IMG/VR virus record: IMGVR_UViG_2711768073_000009
Reading direction: 5' to 3' (one strand)
DNA from: a virus
Taxonomy: Duplodnaviria > Heunggongvirae > Uroviricota > Caudoviricetes
DNA: 8,777 nt
A program made the position numbers and the translations under genes. The notes beneath the pieces were generated by a model, which was not told where the DNA came from, did not search any database, and saw nothing but the letters and a program-made list of their open reading frames with translations. Of the stretch, positions 1-8,777 are shown one piece after another (position 1 is the first letter of the stretch; each line of letters starts with the position of its first letter).

Positions 1-864
1 CCCGCCATCATCGCGGAGCCTGACTTTGAGGCAATTCTGGCTGACACAAAGGCCATGATGATTGCGTCCTATCCTGCCGAACAGCGTGAAGCCGTCTCCG
101 CCGCGCTGGAGCTGGAATCGGAACCCCTGAACGTTATCGCCCAGACAACAGCGTTTCGTGAAATGCTGTTACGCCAGCGGGTCAATGAGGGGGCACGCGC
201 CTGCATGTTAAGCCACAGCGCCGGGACAGACCTGGACAACCTCGCGGGCAATATGAACACAAAGCGCCTGACCATCACTCCGGCAACGGATACCACCGAC
301 GCAGTGATGGAAAGTGACACCTCGCTGAGACTGCGGGCGCAGCGGGCGTACGATGGCCTGAGTGTTGCTGGCCCGTCAGGTGCATACGAGTATTTTGCCC
401 GCAGCGCCAGCGGTCTGGTGCGTGATGCGCGGGCTATCAGTCCGTCTCCGGCAAATGTGACGGTTTCCATCCTGTCCACTGAAGGCGACGGCACAGCAAC
501 GGAGGCGTTGCTTAATACCGTTCGCGCCGTTCTGAATGCAGAGGATACCCGCCCGGTGGCCGACCGCCTGACGGTACAGAGCGCCAGAATCGTGACATGG
601 CGGCTGAATGCAAAACTGTACTTTTACCCCGGCCCGGAATCCGAACCTATTCTGGCGGCGGCTGAATCGTCGTTCAGGAAGTGGCTGGCTGAGCAGGGGC
701 TTATCGGTCAGGACGTGGCGTTGTCCGCCATTGCTGCCGCACTGCATGTGCACGGTGTGCAACGCGTGGAGATAATCGAACCCACACAGAATATGGCCAT
801 CAGCGACATACAGGCGGCGCGCTGTGAGTCGTTCACCATCAGCGAAGGTGGGCGCAATGAGTAA
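1..864 (+). CDS. J: Baseplate assembly protein J (P2 gpJ family), 5' end beyond window start
   Basis: The frame of ORF 55..864 stays open back to nt 1, so the gene starts upstream of the window. The translation (QRVNEGARA, RLTITPA, VMESDT, LSVAGPSGAY, SPSPANVT, RPVADRLTVQSA, LYFYPGPESEPI, LHVHGVQRVE) matches my recollection of P2 gpJ (about 302 aa) from roughly residue 34 onward. Stop TAA at 862-864. Lies directly upstream of the I, H and tfa genes as in P2. Confidence 0.88.
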   Translation, partial: PAIIAEPDFEAILADTKAMMIASYPAEQREAVSAALELESEPLNVIAQTTAFREMLLRQRVNEGARACMLSHSAGTDLDNLAGNMNTKRLTITPATDTTDAVMESDTSLRLRAQRAYDGLSVAGPSGAYEYFARSASGLVRDARAISPSPANVTVSILSTEGDGTATEALLNTVRAVLNAEDTRPVADRLTVQSARIVTWRLNAKLYFYPGPESEPILAAAESSFRKWLAEQGLIGQDVALSAIAAALHVHGVQRVEIIEPTQNMAISDIQAARCESFTISEGGRNE

Positions 865-1387
865 TTCACTGTTACCACCATCAGCCAGCAGTTTCATGCG
901 TTGTGCCGAAGCTGTCGGAACGCGCATTACAGACATCCCGGTAGACCTCAACACGCTGTGGTCGCCGGACACCTGCCCGGTGCACCTGCTGCCTTATCTC
1001 GCCTGGGCATTTTCCGTTGACCGCTGGGATCGCAACTGGCCGGAAGAGACAAAACGACAGGTGATTCGTGATGCATGGCTGATACACCGACACAAAGGGA
1101 CCATCAGCGCACTGCGCAGGGCCATTGAGCCGCTGGGATACCTCATTCGCGTGTCTGAGTGGTGGGAGTTCGGCGGAGAACCGGGAACATTTACCGTTGA
1201 AGTCGGCACACTGGACAGTGGCGTGACGGAGGAAATGTATCTGGAAATGGAGCGGTTGATTGCTGATGCCCGTCCGGTCAGCCGCCACATGACAGGGCTG
1301 AATATCATTCAGGAAATTCCGGGGGATATTTTTGCAGCGGCGGCAACTCATGACGGTGAAGTTATTACCATTTATCCGGACGATTAA
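857..1387 (+). CDS. I: Baseplate/tail protein I (P2 gpI family)
   Basis: ORF track frame 824..1387. I place the start at ATG 857 (MSNSLLPP...), which has a Shine-Dalgarno-like AAGGTGG about 6 nt upstream and overlaps the J stop, rather than the GTG at 824. Motifs [67 protein letters not shown] and the C-terminal DGEVITIYP match recalled P2 gpI (about 176 aa). Confidence 0.88.
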
Positions 1388-1389
1388 GC

Positions 1390-3522
1390 ATGAGTACCAC
1401 AACACGAAAATTTAAAACCGTTATCACCGATACGGGTGCAAAAAAATTAGCTCAGGCAGCCGCGCCAGATGGTAAGCCTGTCCGCCTGACTCATATGGCC
1501 GTGGGCGACGGTGGCGGCGCGTTGCCCACACCAGACAGTAAGCAGACCCGTCTGGTGCATGAGGTGTGGCGACACACTGTTAATCGCGTCATCCTGGACG
1601 CAACACATCAGAACCGCATTATTGCGGAGCTGGTTATTCCTCCAGAAACGGGCGGATTCTGGATCCGGGAAATTGGTGTTTTTGATGAGCACGGCGATTT
1701 AATCGCGGTGGGCAATACTGCCGAAAGTTACAAGCCAGCCGTTGCCGAAGGGTCCGGACGTGCACAAACATTTCGCACCATTCTGACCGTATCCAGCACT
1801 GCCACTGTGGCGCTTACCGTGGATAACACCATGGTGATGGCCACAGTGGATTACGTGGATAACAAACTGAAAGAGCATGAACAGTCACGATGTCACCCGG
1901 ATGCCTCGCTGACCGCAAAAGGCTTTGTTCAACTCAGTAGCGCCACTAACAGCGATTCTGAAACGCTGGCTGCAACGCCGAAAGCGGTTAAGGTCGCGTA
2001 TGATCTTGCTAACGGAAAATATACAGCGCAGGATGCCACAACAGCGCGAAAAGGCCTTGTCCAGCTTAGTAGTGCAACCAACAGTACATCTGAAACGCTG
2101 GCGGCAACATCAAATGCAGTAAAAGCTGCCTATGACAATGCTGAAAAACGTCTGCAGAAAGCTAAGAATGGTGAGGATATCTCTGATAAAGACACCTTTA
2201 CGAAAAATATCGGTGCCTGCCGTGCATATAGTGCAGAGCTGAATATTGGTGGAGATAGTGAAGCATGGACAACTGCGCAGTTGATTTTTTGGCTAGAGAG
2301 TCAGGGGGCATTTAACCATCCTTACTGGATGTGCAAAGGCTCATGGGCTTATGCAAATAATAAGGTCATTACAGATACAGGTTGCGGAAGTATTTGTCTT
2401 GCAGGTGCTGTTGTGGAAGTTATTGGCACCCGCGGCGCAATGACCATACGCATTACCACACCGAGTACATCCAGCGGTGAAGGCATCCCTAATGCTCAAT
2501 TTACTTATATTAATCATGGTGATGCTTATGCTCCTGGCTGGCGAAGGGACTATAACTCCAGGAATAAGCCAACAGCATCAGAGATCGGGGCGTTACCGTC
2601 AGATGGGACAGCAGTATCGTCAGTTAATCTGGCTTCAAAAGGTCGGCTGACCGCCCTGACAGATAATATGCAGGGGGCCACAGGTCTGGAGTTATACGAG
2701 GCGTATAACAACGGATATCCAACAACGTATGGAAATATCATTCACCTGAAAGGGATGACAGCCGTTGGCGAAGGCGAATTACTCATCGGCTGGAGTGGTA
2801 TAAGCGGTGCTCATGCTCCGGCATTTATTCGTTCACGACGGGATACGCCCGACGCAAACTGGTCGCCGTGGGCGCAGCTTTACACCTCGGCTCATCCTCC
2901 TGAAGAGTTTTATCCAGTCGGTGCACCGATTCCGTGGCCATCAGATACCGTTCCGTCTGGTTATGCCCTGATGCAGGGGCAGACTTTTGACAAATCTGCA
3001 TACCCGAAACTTGCAGTCGCTTATCCGTCAGGCGTTATTCCTGATATGCGTGGCTGGACGATTAAGGGCAAGCCCGGCAGTGGTCGTGCCGTATTGTCTC
3101 AGGAACAGGACGGCATTAAATCGCACACCCACAGCGCCAGCGCATCCAGTACGGATTTGGGGACGAAAACCACATCGTCGTTTGATTACGGTACTAAAAC
3201 GACCAGTTCATTTGATTACGGCACAAAAACTACGAATAGCGCTGGAAATCATTCACACAATATACCTGTTGGTCACACTGGCGCGGGGAATGGTGTATCA
3301 GCCGGTTATAACGCTGCGTTAGGTACTGGTACCACGTCGAGCGCAGGCGAGCATGCTCACAATGTATATATCGGTGCCCATAACCACACTATCGGCATTG
3401 GTGCTCATGCCCATTCTGTCATTATTGGTCCCCACGGACACACCATCACCGTTAACGCTACGGGTAACGAAGAAAACACCGTAAAAAACATCGCATTTAA
3501 CTATATTGTGAGGCTTGCATAA
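1390..3522 (+). CDS. H: Tail fibre protein (P2 gpH-like N-terminus, phage tail collar domain, His-rich T4 gp37/lambda Stf-like tip)
   Basis: 710-aa ORF starting 3 nt after the I stop. The N-terminal about 250 aa ([60 protein letters not shown], duplicated [16 protein letters not shown]) resembles P2 gpH. Residues around [29 protein letters not shown]...DMRGWTIKG fit the phage tail collar domain. The C-terminus carries HxH motifs (NHSHN, EHAHN, AHNHT, AHAHS, PHGHT) and ends [11 protein letters not shown], as in T4 gp37-type and Stf-type fibre tips. Confidence 0.9.
1912..2130 (+). repeat. Intragenic duplication in H: two copies of a 44-codon unit ([34 protein letters not shown] and [33 protein letters not shown]), 132 bp apart
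   Basis: Direct read of the sequence and translation. The nucleotide copies are diverged but clearly homologous (ctcagtagcgccactaacagcgattctgaaacgctggctgcaacg versus cttagtagtgcaaccaacagtacatctgaaacgctggcggcaaca). Confidence 0.75.
3158..3240 (+). repeat. 30-bp tandem repeat, about 2.7 copies, encoding [27 protein letters not shown] in the fibre tip
   Basis: Copies at 3161-3190, 3191-3220 and a partial copy at 3221-3240. The first two encode an identical peptide with synonymous nucleotide differences (acgaaaaccacatcgtcg versus actaaaacgaccagttca). Confidence 0.8.
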
Positions 3523-4100
3523 TGACATTCAGAATGAGTGAACACTCACGGACCATAAAAATTTATAATCTACTGACCGGAACCAATGAGTTTATTGGTG
3601 AAGGTGATGCATACATTCCACCTCATACAGGTCTGCCTGCAAACAGTACCGATATTGCCCCGCCAGATATTCCGGCTGGCTTCGTGGCCGTTTTCAACAG
3701 TGATGAGGCATCGTGGCATCTCGTTGAAGACCATCGGGGTAAAACGGTTTATGACGTGGCATCAGGGGACTCGTTATTTATTTCTGAACTCGGTCCATTA
3801 CCGGAAAATGTTACCTGGTTGTCGCCGTATGGAGAGTATCAGAAGTGGAACGGCACATCCTGGGTGAAAGATGCAGAAGCAGAAAAACTGTTTCGGATAA
3901 GGGAGGCGGAAGAAACAAAAAACAGCCTGATGCAGGTAGCCAGCGAGCATATTGCGCCACTTCAGGATGCCGTAGATTTGGATATTGCAACGGAGGAAGA
4001 GGCATCGTTACTGGCTGCATGGAAGACATACCGGGTATTGTTGAATCGTGTTAATACAGCGGTAGCAGCGGATGTTGAGTGGCCAGTCGCCCCACAATAA
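3522..4100 (+). CDS. tfa: Tail fibre assembly chaperone (Tfa; P2 gpG / Mu U / lambda Tfa family)
   Basis: 192-aa ORF whose ATG overlaps the H stop (TAATG at 3520-3524), with GAGG about 10 nt upstream. The N-terminus [62 protein letters not shown] is the classic enterobacterial Tfa N-domain, and the C-terminal [15 protein letters not shown]...EWP resembles the gpG C-terminus. Position immediately after the fibre gene is canonical. Confidence 0.88.
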
Positions 4101-4104
4101 AGAG

Positions 4105-4136
4105 AAAAAGCCATCGATTGAAATATAGATGGCTTT
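4105..4136 (-). terminator. Candidate rho-independent terminator between the convergent tfa and acetyltransferase genes
   Basis: Inverted repeat AAAGCCATC (4107-4115) and GATGGCTTT (4128-4136) with a 12-nt loop. Read on the minus strand, the stem is followed by TTTTTCTCT, directly after the acetyltransferase stop (TAG, complement of 4144-4146). On the plus strand the stem lies 7 nt after the tfa stop but has a weaker U tract. Confidence 0.5.
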
Positions 4137-4143
4137 ATGTACT

Positions 4144-4701
4144 CTATTTATACAATACAACACCGCTCTTTTTAGTTATATATGTGCAGTTCGATGGTAT
4201 ATCTTTATTTATAAAAGACATTGCACCTATTTTTACATTATCCCCAATTTTACGTGATAATCCAATGATGCAACAATTAGCTCCGATATCAACGTTACTA
4301 CCAATTTTTACTCTTGAACCAGGCATGTCACCATCTATCTGTCCAATGGTAGTATTCTGTCGTAACACCAGATTTTCACCAGCATCAACAGCAAAATGAA
4401 CAACAATTCCAGCATGATGGGGAATTGTTAACCCTTTTCCAATATTTGCGCCCAATCCAATTTCACAACCAAATTTGTTAATTATTTTACTGTTTAACTT
4501 TTTGGCTGCTTTCTTATGTAATTTATTACCATTAATATACATTTCGTTAGCCAACCGCCACCAGAAAAGGAAATTCCGGTTACGCTGTTTTTTCTCTCTT
4601 AAAAGCCTCCAGATATCCATACGTTTCCGCCGAATTACTTCATATTTCCAGAAGTTTTTTAAATTAGTAGAGTCCCCAAATAAAACAAAGTGAATTGCCA
4701 T
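4144..4701 (-). CDS. Hexapeptide-repeat acyltransferase (left-handed beta-helix, serine acetyltransferase CysE/WcaB-like); cargo gene
   Basis: ORF track 4144..4749 (201 aa from a GTG with no Shine-Dalgarno). I start the CDS at ATG 4699-4701 (MAIHF...); another in-frame ATG at 4618-4620 (MDIWRLL...) is possible. The C-terminal half has imperfect hexapeptide repeats and a CysE/WcaB-like pattern (GCEIGLGANIGKGLTIPHHAGIVVHFAVDAGENLVLRQNTTIGQ...IGSNVDIGANCCIIG...IGDNVKIGAMSFINKDIPSN). The region is very AT-rich: about 25-32% GC in hand-counted 60-nt samples, against about 55-65% in flanking tail genes. Confidence 0.72.
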   Translation of the reverse strand: MAIHFVLFGDSTNLKNFWKYEVIRRKRMDIWRLLREKKQRNRNFLFWWRLANEMYINGNKLHKKAAKKLNSKIINKFGCEIGLGANIGKGLTIPHHAGIVVHFAVDAGENLVLRQNTTIGQIDGDMPGSRVKIGSNVDIGANCCIIGLSRKIGDNVKIGAMSFINKDIPSNCTYITKKSGVVLYK

Positions 4702-4751
4702 TAAGTAAGACAGCACGATAATCTCCTTAATTATTATTTCAGACCACACAT

Positions 4752-4796
4752 ATTATAAGGTTAAGAGATTATAAAATCCTGTTGTTTGTTATTCAA
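4752..4796 (-). promoter_or_regulatory. Candidate sigma70 promoter for the acetyltransferase gene
   Basis: On the minus strand, TTGAAT (complement of 4791-4796), a 17-nt spacer, then TATAAT (complement of 4768-4773); a second TATAAT lies at the complement of 4752-4757. Located in the AT-rich gap between the gpU stop and the acetyltransferase ORF. Pattern match only. Confidence 0.3.
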
Positions 4797-4872
4797 AAAC
4801 AATTTTCTGAGAAGGACATACAACAGCAAGTCGCCAGTCACCTTCATCAGGAAATTGGCGACATACGTTAAA

Positions 4873-5367
4873 TCAGAGCAGCCCCTTAACTGAGCTGGTC
4901 GCGCTATTAAGGGATGATGTCACCTTATCTTTGAAGCCGGACAACATATCGCTGAACGATGAGGATTGCAGGCGCTCCCGCAAATCCTCATCACAGCGTT
5001 CAAGAGTCAGTGAAAATTCTATCTTTTTCGCCTTACCGTAGCGATCAAACTCGGAGCGGGTCGTATTCGTTTCGGTCAGGACATACATGCCGTAAATCTG
5101 CCCGACGCCATCAATCAGAGGCCAGGGCCGTCCTGTATACGCCTGCGTGGTCAGCAGAGACAGCGACACTTCGCCACCTGTAATTTCAGGATAAAGCACA
5201 CCAGAAAGAACGATGCGATCATCACCTGCACCGATATACTGCCAGCTTGCTGAACGGTTAACGCGTTCATTTTTCACATGCCGCCAGCTTTTGTTTTGCT
5301 GTAACTGCTGATGCGGCAGCGTGCGCAGCTCAAAAACAAACATGCCATAGATCATCATCATGGCCAT
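4873..5367 (-). CDS. U: Tail protein U (P2 gpU family)
   Basis: 164-aa ORF with GAGGAG just upstream of the ATG on the minus strand, starting immediately after the tape measure stop. Motifs MFVFELRTLPHQ, GAGDDRIVLSGVLYPEITGG, GRPWPLIDGVGQIYGMYVL and KKIEFSLTLERCDE match recalled gpU. Sits directly downstream of the tape measure gene as in P2. Confidence 0.82.
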   Translation of the reverse strand: MAMMMIYGMFVFELRTLPHQQLQQNKSWRHVKNERVNRSASWQYIGAGDDRIVLSGVLYPEITGGEVSLSLLTTQAYTGRPWPLIDGVGQIYGMYVLTETNTTRSEFDRYGKAKKIEFSLTLERCDEDLRERLQSSSFSDMLSGFKDKVTSSLNSATSSVKGLL

Positions 5368-5373
5368 GACTCC

Positions 5374-8300
5374 TCAATCTTTATCGTAAAAACTGCCACG
5401 CCCGGCACGGGCGCGCCGTTCCATTTCTGCCCTGACCATTTCACCGACCAGTTTCGCCAGTTCGCGGGGATTCTGCGTAACAACGTTATGCAGATGAACA
5501 TGAATTTCACCGCCAAATCTGGAGACAGCAGGCTCCCGATTACGGGAAGCTGCAGGAACTGATGCCACTGGCGATCGTATGGCCTCCGCCACCGGGCGGG
5601 AGCTGGCCGCAACAACAGGGACCAGCGCCGGAGGCAGCGGAGCCGGGACTACGGGTGTGATATTAATTGCGGGGGCAGGCTTACTGACCTGCGCAATCTT
5701 CCGCTCCTGCCACTCCCCACGAACAGCAAGTGCGCGGGGCAGGTTCTTAAAGACAATATCGCCAGGGCCAATGCGTTTTTTCGTCTCATCAACCAGCTTA
5801 CCTGTGTTATCAGCAATTTTGCTGAGTCTGCGTAGCGTCCCGGTATTGCTGTCTGTGAGCGGTTTGTTGTCTTTGGGTTTATCACCTCCGGTGCCATTGC
5901 CATTTTCCACAGGCTTCGGCGGATTGATTTTCGCCAGGTCCCCCTGAAGTAAGGCAACCTTATCCTGAAGAATGGCCGCACGCTGTGCGTCTTCGATTTT
6001 CTTGCGCGCCCTTTCCGCTTCATCCGGAAGGACGCCAAGTTTTTCAAGTATCCACGCCAGCGTATCCAGTAGCATTTTTGCAGGTGTCAGAACAAGTTGT
6101 AACGCACCGCCAAGAACGTTACCGAATATCTCGCCAGCACTGGTACATTTATCCAGCGTTTCCTTGCTGGACTCCATCGGTGACAGCAGCGATTTAAACC
6201 AGTTAAACACCTGGCTGATCCCGCTTCCGATTGCGTCAAAAACAGGGCCAAACCGTTCAAAGGTTTCACGCAACGGGTTCAGCCTTTCCATAATCCCGCT
6301 GAACACCCCGGCAAAAAATGCCCTGATGGGATCCCAGTATTTCCAGATAAGGACGGCAGCTCCGGCAAGCGCAGCCACGATAAGACCAACCGGACTGAAC
6401 AGCGCCCCGATAGCGCCTCCCAGTAAAGAAACGGAACCCGTCACCATTCCCCATAGTGCTGGCAGGACCCTGACAGCATTCATTGATCCGGTCAGGAGAG
6501 AAAAACCAAGACGCAGTTTTGCCAGCGGACCAGCAAGCACACCAATAGCCAGCGACAACGAGCCAACCGTTGCAGTCATTGCCAGCAACGCACCGCCTGC
6601 TATCAGTAGCTGGCGCGTCAGTGCCGGATGGGCCTGCGCCAGCGCCGTCACCCTTGATACCACCCGCGCGAGCCACTGCGTGACAGAACGCAGCGGACCG
6701 TCAATCAGATCTGCAATGCGGATGCGCAACCCTTCCCATGCACTGCCGAGTGATTTCAGATCGCCGTCAAGGTTGTTGGCCATAACCTTTGCTGTGCGTT
6801 CAGCCTCACCGCGCGCGCCTTCAAGTTCTTTTCTCAGTTTGGGTAAGGAACCGTCACCCGCTGCATCAACGAGCGCCATAAACGATGTGAAAGCCTCTTC
6901 TCCGGCAATGTCCTTAAAGAACGATACCCGGTCAACTTCCCCGTATTTGCGGGTGGCTTTATAAAGGTCGGCCAGCACATCCTCCATCGGGCGCATTTTA
7001 CCCCCGGCATCCGAGACGGACACGCCCAGCTCTTTCAGAGCTTCTGCCGCCGCCTTTGGCGGTGATGCCAGACGAGCCAGGCTGGCACGCATTGCCGTCC
7101 CGGCATCACTCCCCCTGATACCCATATTCGCCAGCACGCCCGCCATCGCTGCGGCCTGCTCCAGCGATATTCCCAGCTTGCCCGCCACCGGACCTGCATA
7201 TTTCATGGTTTCGCCCAGTGCGCGAAGGTCAGTGTTGACACGCCCAGCTCTTTCAGAGCTTCTGCCGCCGCCTTTGGCGGTGATGCCAGACGAGCCAGGC
7301 TGGCACGCATTGCCGTCCCGGCATCACTCCCTCTGATGCCCATATTCGCCAGCACACCAGCCATCGCTGCGGCCTGCTCCAGCGATATTCCCAGCTTACC
7401 CGCCACCGGACCTGCATATTTCATGGTTTCGCCCAGTGCGCGAAGGTCAGTGTTGGTACGGGTAAACGCTGCGGTGAGTGTGTCACCGACCCGGTCCATC
7501 TGGTCAGCAGAAAGGCCGAACTGCGTCAGGATATTTGAGCCAATATCTGCCGTCTCGCCGAGATCCATACCGCCAGCCGTTGCCATGCTCAGCACGCCGG
7601 GAAGCGCAGCCTGAATGGCCTGCGGAGTGAAGCCAGCCATTGCAAGAAATGCCTGTCCACTGGCGGCATCGCCTGCGGTGAACTGCGTTTCAGAGCCAAG
7701 TTTTAACGCCTGCTCACGCAGCGCCTTAAACTGCGGGCTGTTCTGGTCGATTCGCGTCAGTGCCTGAACGCGGGACATCTCTTTGCCGAACCCGATCGCA
7801 GGCTGCAAAAAACGCCCGGCAGCATAGCCGCCCGCCGCTGCCGCACCAATTGCCAGCGCACCACCTGTTTTCAGTTTTCCCGCTGTTTCCTGCGCGCGCG
7901 AATACCGCTCACGCGCCTGCGTTACACGCGCAAGCGCCTGCCGTTCGCGTTCAAGCTGGTTGTTGTACTGTTCGGTGCGTCTGATGGCCTGCTGGATGGT
8001 GTTATCGCTGCCTGTCAGGGAAATGCCGTGGCGTTTCAGCTCTCCGCCAAGTTCCCGCATTTTCTGAATTTCCCGTGTGCGCGATTCATTCAGGCGTTCA
8101 AGCCGGGTGCTTAACTGCTGCATCAGCTTTTGTTGTTTTTCGCTGAGCACTGTACCCGTGCGTTGTAACTGATTAAGGGCGTTAAGCTGGCGTCGTGCTT
8201 TCAATATGCCAGCATCCGCTTTACTGACAGCGTCACAGGCGCGCTCAAATGAACGCGCCTGACGCTCGAGATTTTTGATCGCCCCCTGAGTTCGCTGGAT

Positions 8301-8399
8301 GGAGTCACCAAACTGCCCCATCAGGCGGCGGGCGTTTTCGGCAGGCCGGGTCAGCCTGTCAACGGCGCTGAAAGCGACCCGGATATCAAGAGTCTTCAT
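5374..8399 (-). pseudogene. T: Tail tape measure protein (P2 gpT / TP901-type core), frameshifted by a 218-bp tandem duplication
   Basis: Two adjacent ORFs, 7203..8435 (N-terminal part) and 5374..7206 (C-terminal part). The 63-aa block MKYAGPVAGKLGISLEQAAAMAGVLANMGIRGSDAGTAMRASLARLASPPKAAAEALKELGVS ends the first and begins the second. Deleting one 218-bp copy restores a single frame of about 935 codons. Likely start is ATG at 8397-8399 (MKTLDIR...), with AGGA 9 nt upstream, rather than the GTG at 8435. Motifs KYAGPVAGKLGIS, AGVLANMGIRGSD and a Gly/Ala-rich hydrophobic middle are typical of tape measure proteins. Confidence 0.8.
7019..7454. repeat. Tandem direct duplication, 2 x 218 bp, inside the tape measure gene
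   Basis: Copy 1 is 7019-7236 and copy 2 is 7237-7454, aligned by hand. There are 5 mismatches in 218 bp (ccccctgata/ccctctgatg, cacgcccgcc/cacaccagcc, cttgccc/cttaccc), all synonymous in the gene's frame. 218 is not a multiple of 3, so the frame shifts at the junction. Confidence 0.9.
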
Positions 8400-8777
8400 T
8401 ATCTGCATTCCTGCTGCGAAGTGCCGCCCGCTCACGCCAGCTAACCACTTCGCCGGGCGTCATCATGAAGATTTCGGCGGGCGACCAGTTAAAAATAACG
8501 GCAATATCTGCCACAAAGTCTTCTATGTGCTCAAAGCACACAACCGTGATCAGGCTTCCGTCGCCTGTTCGTTCTTCCCGCCAGAGTCCGCACCGCTCAA
8601 AAAATTTACGGCAACCACACATAACTGAATAAAGTCACGGGATGCCATTTTTTTGATCGTCACTTCATCCAGTCGCGGTGATGTCACGCGTGACAGCAGC
8701 GTAAACATGGATTCCGCTTTCAGATTCAGCACATCAGACAGCGACAAATCTCGCAGAGATCCAGCCTGCTCAATAGC
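8386..8777 (-). CDS. Tail assembly chaperone E+E' fusion made by programmed -1 ribosomal frameshift (P2 gpE+E' / lambda G-GT analogue), partial
   Basis: The -1 frame ORF 8386..8622 has no credible start of its own and overlaps the 3' part of E. It ends (TGA, complement of 8386-8388) 14 nt inside the tape measure start. The two frames meet at T TTT TTG. Confidence 0.6.
8550..8777 (-). CDS. E: Tail assembly chaperone E (P2 gpE-like), 5' end probably beyond window end
   Basis: Small ORF directly upstream of the tape measure gene; stop TGA at the complement of 8550-8552. The frame is open to the window edge (ORF track begins at a TTG at 8747), and a gpE-sized protein of about 90 aa would start past nt 8777. 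Contains the slippery heptamer. Assignment rests on position and the frameshift architecture rather than remembered sequence. Confidence 0.6.
   Translation of the reverse strand, partial: AIEQAGSLRDLSLSDVLNLKAESMFTLLSRVTSPRLDEVTIKKMASRDFIQLCVVAVNFLSGADSGGKNEQATEA
8598..8604 (-). other. Slippery heptamer T TTT TTG for the E to E' -1 frameshift
   Basis: Minus strand reads cgtAAATTTTTTGagc. In the E frame the codons are AAT TTT TTG (X XXY YYZ with the heptamer in phase); in the -1 frame AAA TTT TTT GAG continues as KFFERCGLW in the E' ORF. P2 E/E' is reported to use the same TTTTTTG heptamer. Confidence 0.6.

Follow-up and report, generated by a model that had tools for sequence, protein, structure and literature searches.

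A 218-bp tandem repeat that splits the tape measure gene of a P88-like prophage contig is probably a false duplication joining two natural alleles

The window analysed here, which is the whole stretch of 8,777 nucleotides, contains a P2-like tape measure gene that is interrupted by a 218-bp tandem repeat. The repeat lies far beyond chance, and its presence in the deposited sequence is confirmed. Nevertheless, our best reading is that it should be filed as an assembly artefact rather than as a biological feature: the allelic composition of the sequence points to a false 'heterotype' duplication, which would have been introduced during the assembly, scaffolding or gap closing of a short-read draft (we put the probability of this reading at roughly 0.78). 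Within the P2/P88-like tape measure family, the gene itself is unexceptional.

When the 610-aa product encoded by the downstream part of the gene was looked up by exact match, a single contig was returned, and the window is the entirety of that 8,777-bp contig (CYGD01000052.1, draft assembly GCA_001284425.1). The database entry of CYGD01000052.1 lists 2 samples with the contig, and a literature search for CYGD01 or GCA_001284425 found no paper. The genes of the window constitute a P2-like tail module. The plus strand encodes baseplate J, baseplate I, the tail fibre and the protein for tail fibre assembly; the minus strand carries an acetyltransferase-like gene, gpU, the gene for the tape measure and the two chaperone genes gpE'/gpE. 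The landmarks on either side of the tape measure gene are the following:

4873-5367, minus strand: GpU (PF06995)
8386-8541, minus strand: GpE (PF06528)
8604-8598, minus strand: slippery motif TTTTTTG

The nearest phages are P88-like (Xuanwuvirus) phages and Citrobacter phage Shae_phiSM; over positions 6700-7800 the identity to P88, P884B11, PhiR44_2 and Shae_phiSM amounts to 95.9-98.5%. Prophages of O103, O111 and O26 strains are 99.6% identical to the whole window and colinear with it except for the extra 218 bp. Judged by identity and gene order, the window thus represents a P2-like prophage of the P88 type (Xuanwuvirus).

In the deposited sequence, the repeat cuts the minus-strand P2/P88-like tape measure gene of 935 codons into an ORF of 398 or 410 aa and an ORF of 610 aa. 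The two fragments and the elements of the repeat are arranged as follows, where A and B denote two natural alleles of the gene:

7203..8399, minus strand: upstream tape measure fragment, 398 aa from the ATG at 8399 (the call in the public record) or 410 aa from the GTG at 8435
5374..7206, minus strand: downstream tape measure fragment, 610 aa, with an internal Met start; protein CTZ86857.1, annotated as 'tail protein (modular protein)'
7019..7236, minus strand: repeat copy 1, B-type (OSUCMP42NDM-like) at 5/5 informative sites; holds the start of the 610-aa ORF (ATG at 7206)
7237..7454, minus strand: repeat copy 2, A-type (RM8385-like) at 5/5 informative sites; the patch that is 'extra' within the B-type tract around it
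7212..7261, no strand: junction between the copies (7236/7237), with 1 nt of microhomology; novel sequence, found nowhere else

Since 218 nt correspond to 72 codons plus 2 nt, the upstream ORF leaves its frame in copy 1, where it ends after 10 out-of-frame residues (TLTFAHWAKP) at a TGA codon (7205-7203). The upstream and downstream ORFs overlap as ATGA. The ATG of the 610-aa ORF is an internal Met codon of the stretch ...GETMKYAG..., and the shifted frame across this ATG reads CCA TGA. When either copy is deleted, one uninterrupted ORF of 935 aa is obtained, as in all relatives.

Both fragments matched the tape measure profiles well above the respective cut-offs. For PF10145 (PhageMin_Tail, 201 positions, cut-off 33.2 bits), the upstream ORF scored 171.8 bits over profile positions 1-168 and the downstream ORF 101.9 bits over positions 100-201; for TIGR01760 (tape_meas_TP901, 349 positions, cut-off 28.8 bits), the corresponding values were 183.9 bits over positions 4-203 and 170.7 bits over positions 140-349. 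As the profile spans divide between the two ORFs, the repeat is located inside the conserved domain, and the deposited sequence does not contain the one long unbroken ORF, with a length that sets tail length, that is typical of the family. The position of the gene is the usual one, directly downstream of the frameshifted gpE/E+E' chaperone pair and upstream of gpU. These profile matches, together with the identity to phages, bear out the original prediction that this is a P2-like tape measure gene and place it close to P88 (Xuanwuvirus). It resembles the gpT homologues of the P88 group in its nucleotide identity of 96-98.5% to the tape measure genes of P88, PhiR44_2, 503458 and Shae_phiSM, in having gpE/E' upstream and gpU downstream, and in encoding the usual 935-aa protein once one copy is removed. 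It differs from them in that the deposited gene is split into two ORFs, with a 218-bp repeat inside the conserved domain.

Tandem Repeats Finder reported one array at positions 7019-7455, with a period of 218, 2.0 copies, 97% matches, 0 indels and a score of 839. Direct comparison of copy 1 with copy 2 revealed five mismatches (7114/7332 C/T, 7120/7338 A/G, 7138/7356 G/A, 7141/7359 C/A and 7180/7398 G/A). All five are silent third-codon-position differences in the minus-strand frame (AGG/AGA, GGT/GGC, GGC/GGT, GCG/GCT and GGC/GGT), and both copies consequently encode the same 63-aa stretch, MKYAGPV...KELGVS. The 218-bp copies, their five silent mismatches and their common product were therefore exactly as initially described. 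The homology between the copies breaks off sharply at either border, with a microhomology of 1 nt (G). A plain concatenation of two arms of an assembly bubble was rejected as the origin of these borders, which lie asymmetrically around the differing sites (7236 is the last SNP plus 56, and 7019 is the first SNP minus 95).

To assign the copies, we used two sets of single-copy prophages as references: E. coli RM8385 (O103) and the O111:H11 strain 88.0502 for allele A, and the prophage adjoining flk-yfcJ in OSUCMP42NDM and CH468 for allele B. Exactly five positions of the 218-bp unit distinguish A from B. Copy 2 matches allele A (RM8385, 88.0502) with 0 mismatches and allele B with 5, and copy 1 matches allele B (OSUCMP42NDM, CH468) with 0 mismatches and allele A with 5. 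Each copy is thus identical to a different pre-existing allele. This agrees with the view that the repeat is not a recent in-place duplication, the copies being two diverged natural tape measure alleles. The silence of the differences had been regarded as special, but it is what the gene would lead one to expect: 37 of the 53 A/B differences across the tape measure gene are silent (~70%) and 16 are not, so that five out of five silent differences have a p-value of ~0.17. Selection keeping the copy differences silent was rejected as unnecessary for this reason. As judged from these allele comparisons, the silent differences already existed between the two functional alleles from which the copies derive. 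We also noted that the tape measure alleles of P88-like prophages are visibly mosaic in nature.

As single-copy genes, A and B are both common. Matches to most of the region 6700-7800 (1,101 bp) occur in 577 complete E. coli genomes as well as in 11 phage records, and among the matches listed all span 883 bp (1,101 minus 218) instead of 1,101 bp, as had been anticipated for relatives of this prophage. To look for the repeat itself, we used a 50-mer with 25 nt on either side of 7236/7237, which cannot seed on a single copy. This probe had no megablast hit among 5,426 complete E. coli genomes; likewise, neither metagenome contigs nor GTDB species-representative genomes contained a 40-mer that spans the junction. 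The 610-aa product was found on 1 contig only among ~15 billion proteins, and it belongs to a cluster of 13,557 members, the complete ones of which are typically 935 aa long. The 398-aa upstream fragment was not on record, and the repaired 935-aa mosaic protein was absent from the same collection of ~15 billion proteins; since both were missing from the records, no independent assembly of the same allele was found. The junction is accordingly unmatched in independent assemblies of the locus, and the split protein occurs on this contig alone.

The distribution of alleles along the contig was then read from the sites that distinguish A from B:

4903-6562: allele A at 40 informative sites, with no switch
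6669 and 6860: allele B
7000: allele A, a single site
7114-7180 (copy 1): allele B at 5 sites
7332-7398 (copy 2): allele A at 5 sites
7573-8401: allele B at ~20 sites; 8237 and 8412 are private
8609: allele A
6669..8412, no strand: B-type tract, B throughout except for site 7000 and copy 2, inside an otherwise A-type contig

Outside 6669-8412, the contig differs from the A-type prophage by 3 mismatches in 1-6600 and by none in 8441-8777, and it is less than 0.1% different from its closest relatives. In OSUCMP42NDM, the equivalents of 6600-7236 and 7455-8440 are directly contiguous, which identifies the extra 218 bp as an A-type patch in a B-type tract inside an A-type prophage. Neither 6840-7236 nor 7237-7700 had an exact match in the 5,426 complete E. 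coli genomes, the best match being one mismatch off in each case. The second prophage of 88.0502 and that of MDR_56 were considered as donors of the B tract and were rejected, having 8 mismatches in 7455-8440 and 48 in 8441-8777. The original prediction of a junction between two diverged alleles therefore holds in so far as the copies are alleles A and B, but because both flanks of the repeat are B-type, a simple two-allele junction and a single unequal crossover are excluded. Such a crossover would leave the sequence of one parent on the left of the junction and that of the other on the right. Of the two origins that had been proposed, recombination and an unmerged contig overlap, the evidence favours the artefactual one, and one unequal crossover cannot produce the observed pattern.

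The ends of the contig provide separate information on the composition of the reads:

1..74, no strand: left contig end; the base before position 1 is an A/B polymorphism (RM8385 has A, OSUCMP42NDM and CH468 have C), and 1-74 is common to both alleles
8610..8777, no strand: right contig end; the base after 8777 is polymorphic between A and B (C versus T), and the last 168 bases are common to both alleles

With A/B SNPs at local densities of 0.038 and 0.011, the probability that chance alone puts each of the two ends flush with such a SNP is ~4e-4. A contig that stops one base before a SNP shows the pattern of a branch point in a de Bruijn graph, and the reads therefore very probably held both A-like and B-like versions of the region. 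Genomes with two P88-like prophages are common: P88-like matches were found at 1,530 places in 1,373 genomes, and the O111:H11 strain 88.0502, for example, carries an A-type prophage plus a second one at flk-yfcJ. From such indirect signs, we infer a probable second prophage in the genome sequenced here. When eight proteins of the OSUCMP42NDM/CH468-type (B-type) prophage were looked up, no CTZ accession of GCA_001284425.1 was among the accessions listed, at most four per protein.

These observations suggest the following course of events for the favoured explanation, an error of assembly. The sequenced DNA would have contained two related P88-like prophages, one whose tail region is A-type, like that of RM8385, and includes the acetyltransferase gene, and one whose tape measure gene is B-type, like that of OSUCMP42NDM. 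With an identity of 97-99% across the tape measure gene, the two prophages would have given rise to allelic bubbles in the assembly graph, and the assembler may have threaded one contig through mixed A and B arms. Such a chimeric path through two alleles fits both the mosaic order of A and B sites and the lack of exact matches for 6840-7236 and 7237-7700. At the five-SNP bubble, both arms would have been laid in tandem, B first and A second, each with shared flanks. Each real prophage would then have a single, unbroken tape measure gene for the 935-aa protein; the frameshift, like the pair of ORFs and their ATGA overlap, would be a by-product. An assembler that works purely on a de Bruijn graph cannot produce a junction that no read contains, which speaks against an artefact of graph traversal as such and means that a scaffolding, gap-filling or overlap-merging step is needed. 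We infer that a post-assembly step made the junction 7236/7237, probably scaffolding or gap closing; to tie it to any particular scaffolding or gap-closing tool would be speculation. Three further observations weigh against an artefact. The borders of the duplication (7019 and 7236), unlike the contig ends, are not flush with A/B SNPs; allele A is maintained at the 40 consecutive sites of 4903-6562, which is more like a real haplotype than a series of random bubble choices; and the contig entry lists more than one sample.

False heterotype duplications, in which the haplotypes, or paralogues, of a locus are both placed side by side and are sometimes joined by incorrect gap filling, have been described for heterozygous diploid vertebrate genomes, where they are defined by read-depth and k-mer evidence (Ko et al. 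2022, PMC9516828). The present repeat shares with this class adjacent copies whose only differences fall on allelic sites of two natural haplotypes, a probably false gene disruption, an origin in a short-read draft, and a locus with a presumed near-identical second copy. It is unlike the class in that the 'haplotypes' would here belong to two prophages that are paralogues within a haploid bacterium and in that it was judged from sequence alone.

If the repeat is an artefact, the organism probably has neither the 610-aa protein CTZ86857.1 nor the second fragment, and to call the gene a pseudogene or the virus a 'defective prophage' on their account would be wrong. The earlier conclusion that the gene is broken and the prophage defective hence probably does not describe a property of the organism, given that the junction and the split protein occur in one draft contig only and that the contig ends point to two haplotypes. 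Confirmation from reads is called for before the 610-aa 'modular' tail protein, or the seeming pseudogenisation of the gene, is relied upon. Errors of this kind may be checked for even where reads are not at hand, by asking whether each copy corresponds to a different natural allele and whether the contig ends are flush on allele-differing sites.

Recombination between related prophages in the same cell yields mosaic or defective prophages, as for lambdoid and P2-like prophages in STEC. The main competitor of an assembly error, which we consider improbable though worth weighing, is a real event in vivo, in which patchy gene conversion of an A-type by a B-type P88-like prophage of the same cell would have been combined with an out-of-register template switch or an illegitimate join. 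The repeat would then be a genuine heteroallelic tandem repeat, with the tape measure encoded by two ORFs that are translationally coupled through ATGA, each with the duplicated 63-aa segment; we hold this reading of the gene to be just as improbable. In its favour, the contig ends point to a sample with two haplotypes and hence to an available donor, and the B tract at 6669-8412 in an A-type prophage resembles a conversion tract. The mosaicism of natural tape measure alleles is in line with such exchanges, an illegitimate join would agree with the microhomology of 1 nt at the junction, and the contig runs through the junction without Ns, as would be expected with read support. However, a single lineage would have to have gone through about six switches within ~2 kb, in the order A>B>A>B>A>B>A, including one that is out of register. 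The B-type flanks exclude a single unequal crossover, the 'parents' that a crossover requires were not found in the 5,426 complete genomes, and the junction and both products were in no other assembly searched. The two related prophages and the mosaic allele patterns are thus shared with known cases of same-cell recombination, whereas homologous prophage exchange keeps the register and leaves no out-of-register 218-bp repeat with 1-nt microhomology, and the present pattern needs many switches within 2 kb. Were the event real, the tape measure gene would be inactivated, as originally argued, and no tails would be made unless another prophage complemented the defect. One would then be looking directly at an intermediate stage in the inactivation of a prophage by inter-prophage recombination or, conceivably, at a two-piece tape measure; as a small example of one prophage damaging another by recombination, the event would leave tape measure biology unchanged.

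Considerably less probable is a variant of the assembly error in which the second haplotype came from another E. coli strain, through contamination or a mixed colony, with one P88-like prophage in each strain. The evidence from the contig ends and the mosaic pattern requires two haplotypes in the reads and not in one chromosome, and is to this extent compatible with a mixture. Nevertheless, the frequent occurrence of two such prophages per genome makes a mixture needless, and nothing in the window points to contamination.

In-place tandem duplication of one allele by replication slippage, followed by point mutations in one copy, agrees with the perfect head-to-tail arrangement and the absence of indels but is very nearly ruled out, because the five differences are exactly the sites at which A and B differ, with the alternative bases, each copy having 0 mismatches to one allele, and because the contig outside the B tract has diverged so little from its closest relatives. 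Drift after duplication was rejected on the same grounds, as independent mutation cannot recreate both natural alleles exactly. Genuine slippage and a single unequal crossover are both at odds with copies that differ at allelic sites and with a repeat that is flanked by allele B on either side.

Sites that are polymorphic between the RM8385-type and the OSUCMP42NDM-type prophages directly adjoin both termini of the contig, each lying one base outside it.

Polymorphic sites at the contig ends, at these positions:
window 1 and 8777
prophage of RM8385 (L002) 3000 and 11560
prophage of OSUCMP42NDM (L004) 1051 and 9324

Judged from the sequence, such flush contig ends are a read-free sign of two haplotypes in the assembly graph. 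The contig's database entry gives two samples and displays a single record (GCA_001284425.1); the second could be a GenBank/RefSeq twin or another isolate from the same assembly pipeline. Compared with all six reference prophages examined, the window also carries private single-base differences, located at 1434, 1440 and 1680 in the tail fibre gene and at 8237 and 8412 in the tape measure gene. By this comparison, the prophage or prophages of the source strain differ from every complete genome compared.

When window 4880-8777 was compared with the prophages of OSUCMP42NDM, CH468, O111:H11 strain 88.0502 (its second prophage) and MDR_56 (L004-L007), the alleles of gpU, gpE and the tape measure gene in P88-like prophages of E. 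coli were found to be strongly mosaic, with densely differing blocks alternating with identical ones. Examples of the former are 6508-6658 and 8434-8757, as seen with the type shared by MDR_56 and the second prophage of the O111 strain. It follows that these prophages often recombine in nature. The tape measure gene additionally contains an internal repeat, which probably reflects a 7-codon periodicity of the encoded protein.

Internal repeat of the tape measure gene:
window 7906-7956, 2.4 imperfect tandem copies of a 21-bp unit (77% matches), within the coiled-coil-like N-terminal part

Within the gpE gene, which extends from 8550 to past the contig end, a slippery-type motif was found in the gpE frame, and the −1 frame, namely the gpE' ORF ending at 8386, is open right at this motif.

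Motif in gpE:
window 8604-8598, minus strand, TTTTTTG

Together, the motif and the open −1 frame fit the arrangement of the programmed E/E+E' frameshift of P2. The A7 run at 8654-8648 was rejected as the frameshift site because a stop in the −1 frame separates it from E'.

A further gene is flanked by the tail fibre assembly gene and gpU.

Acetyltransferase gene:
window 4144-4749, minus strand, hexapeptide-repeat acetyltransferase of 190-201 aa, annotated in RefSeq as serine O-acetyltransferase

EpsC, CysE and WcaB were weak, sub-threshold matches of its product. The A-type prophage carries the gene, and the OSUCMP42NDM type lacks it. It has the look of a 'moron' (cargo) gene, and surface polysaccharide is possibly the target of the putative modification. 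An inverted tail-fibre cassette and a recombinase occupy this slot in the type shared by MDR_56 and the second prophage of the O111 strain.

Lastly, in OSUCMP42NDM, O111:H11 strain 88.0502 and MDR_56, the annotation of the flk-yfcJ prophage shows late control gene D as a 'VgrG/Pvc8 family' CDS of reduced length, accompanied by a pseudogene fragment.

gpD region of the flk-yfcJ prophage:
OSUCMP42NDM (L004) 11626-12479
O111:H11 strain 88.0502, second prophage (L006) 13173-14026
MDR_56 (L007) 13173-14026

The flk-yfcJ prophage has therefore already decayed in several lineages; in CH468 the D gene is intact (369 aa).
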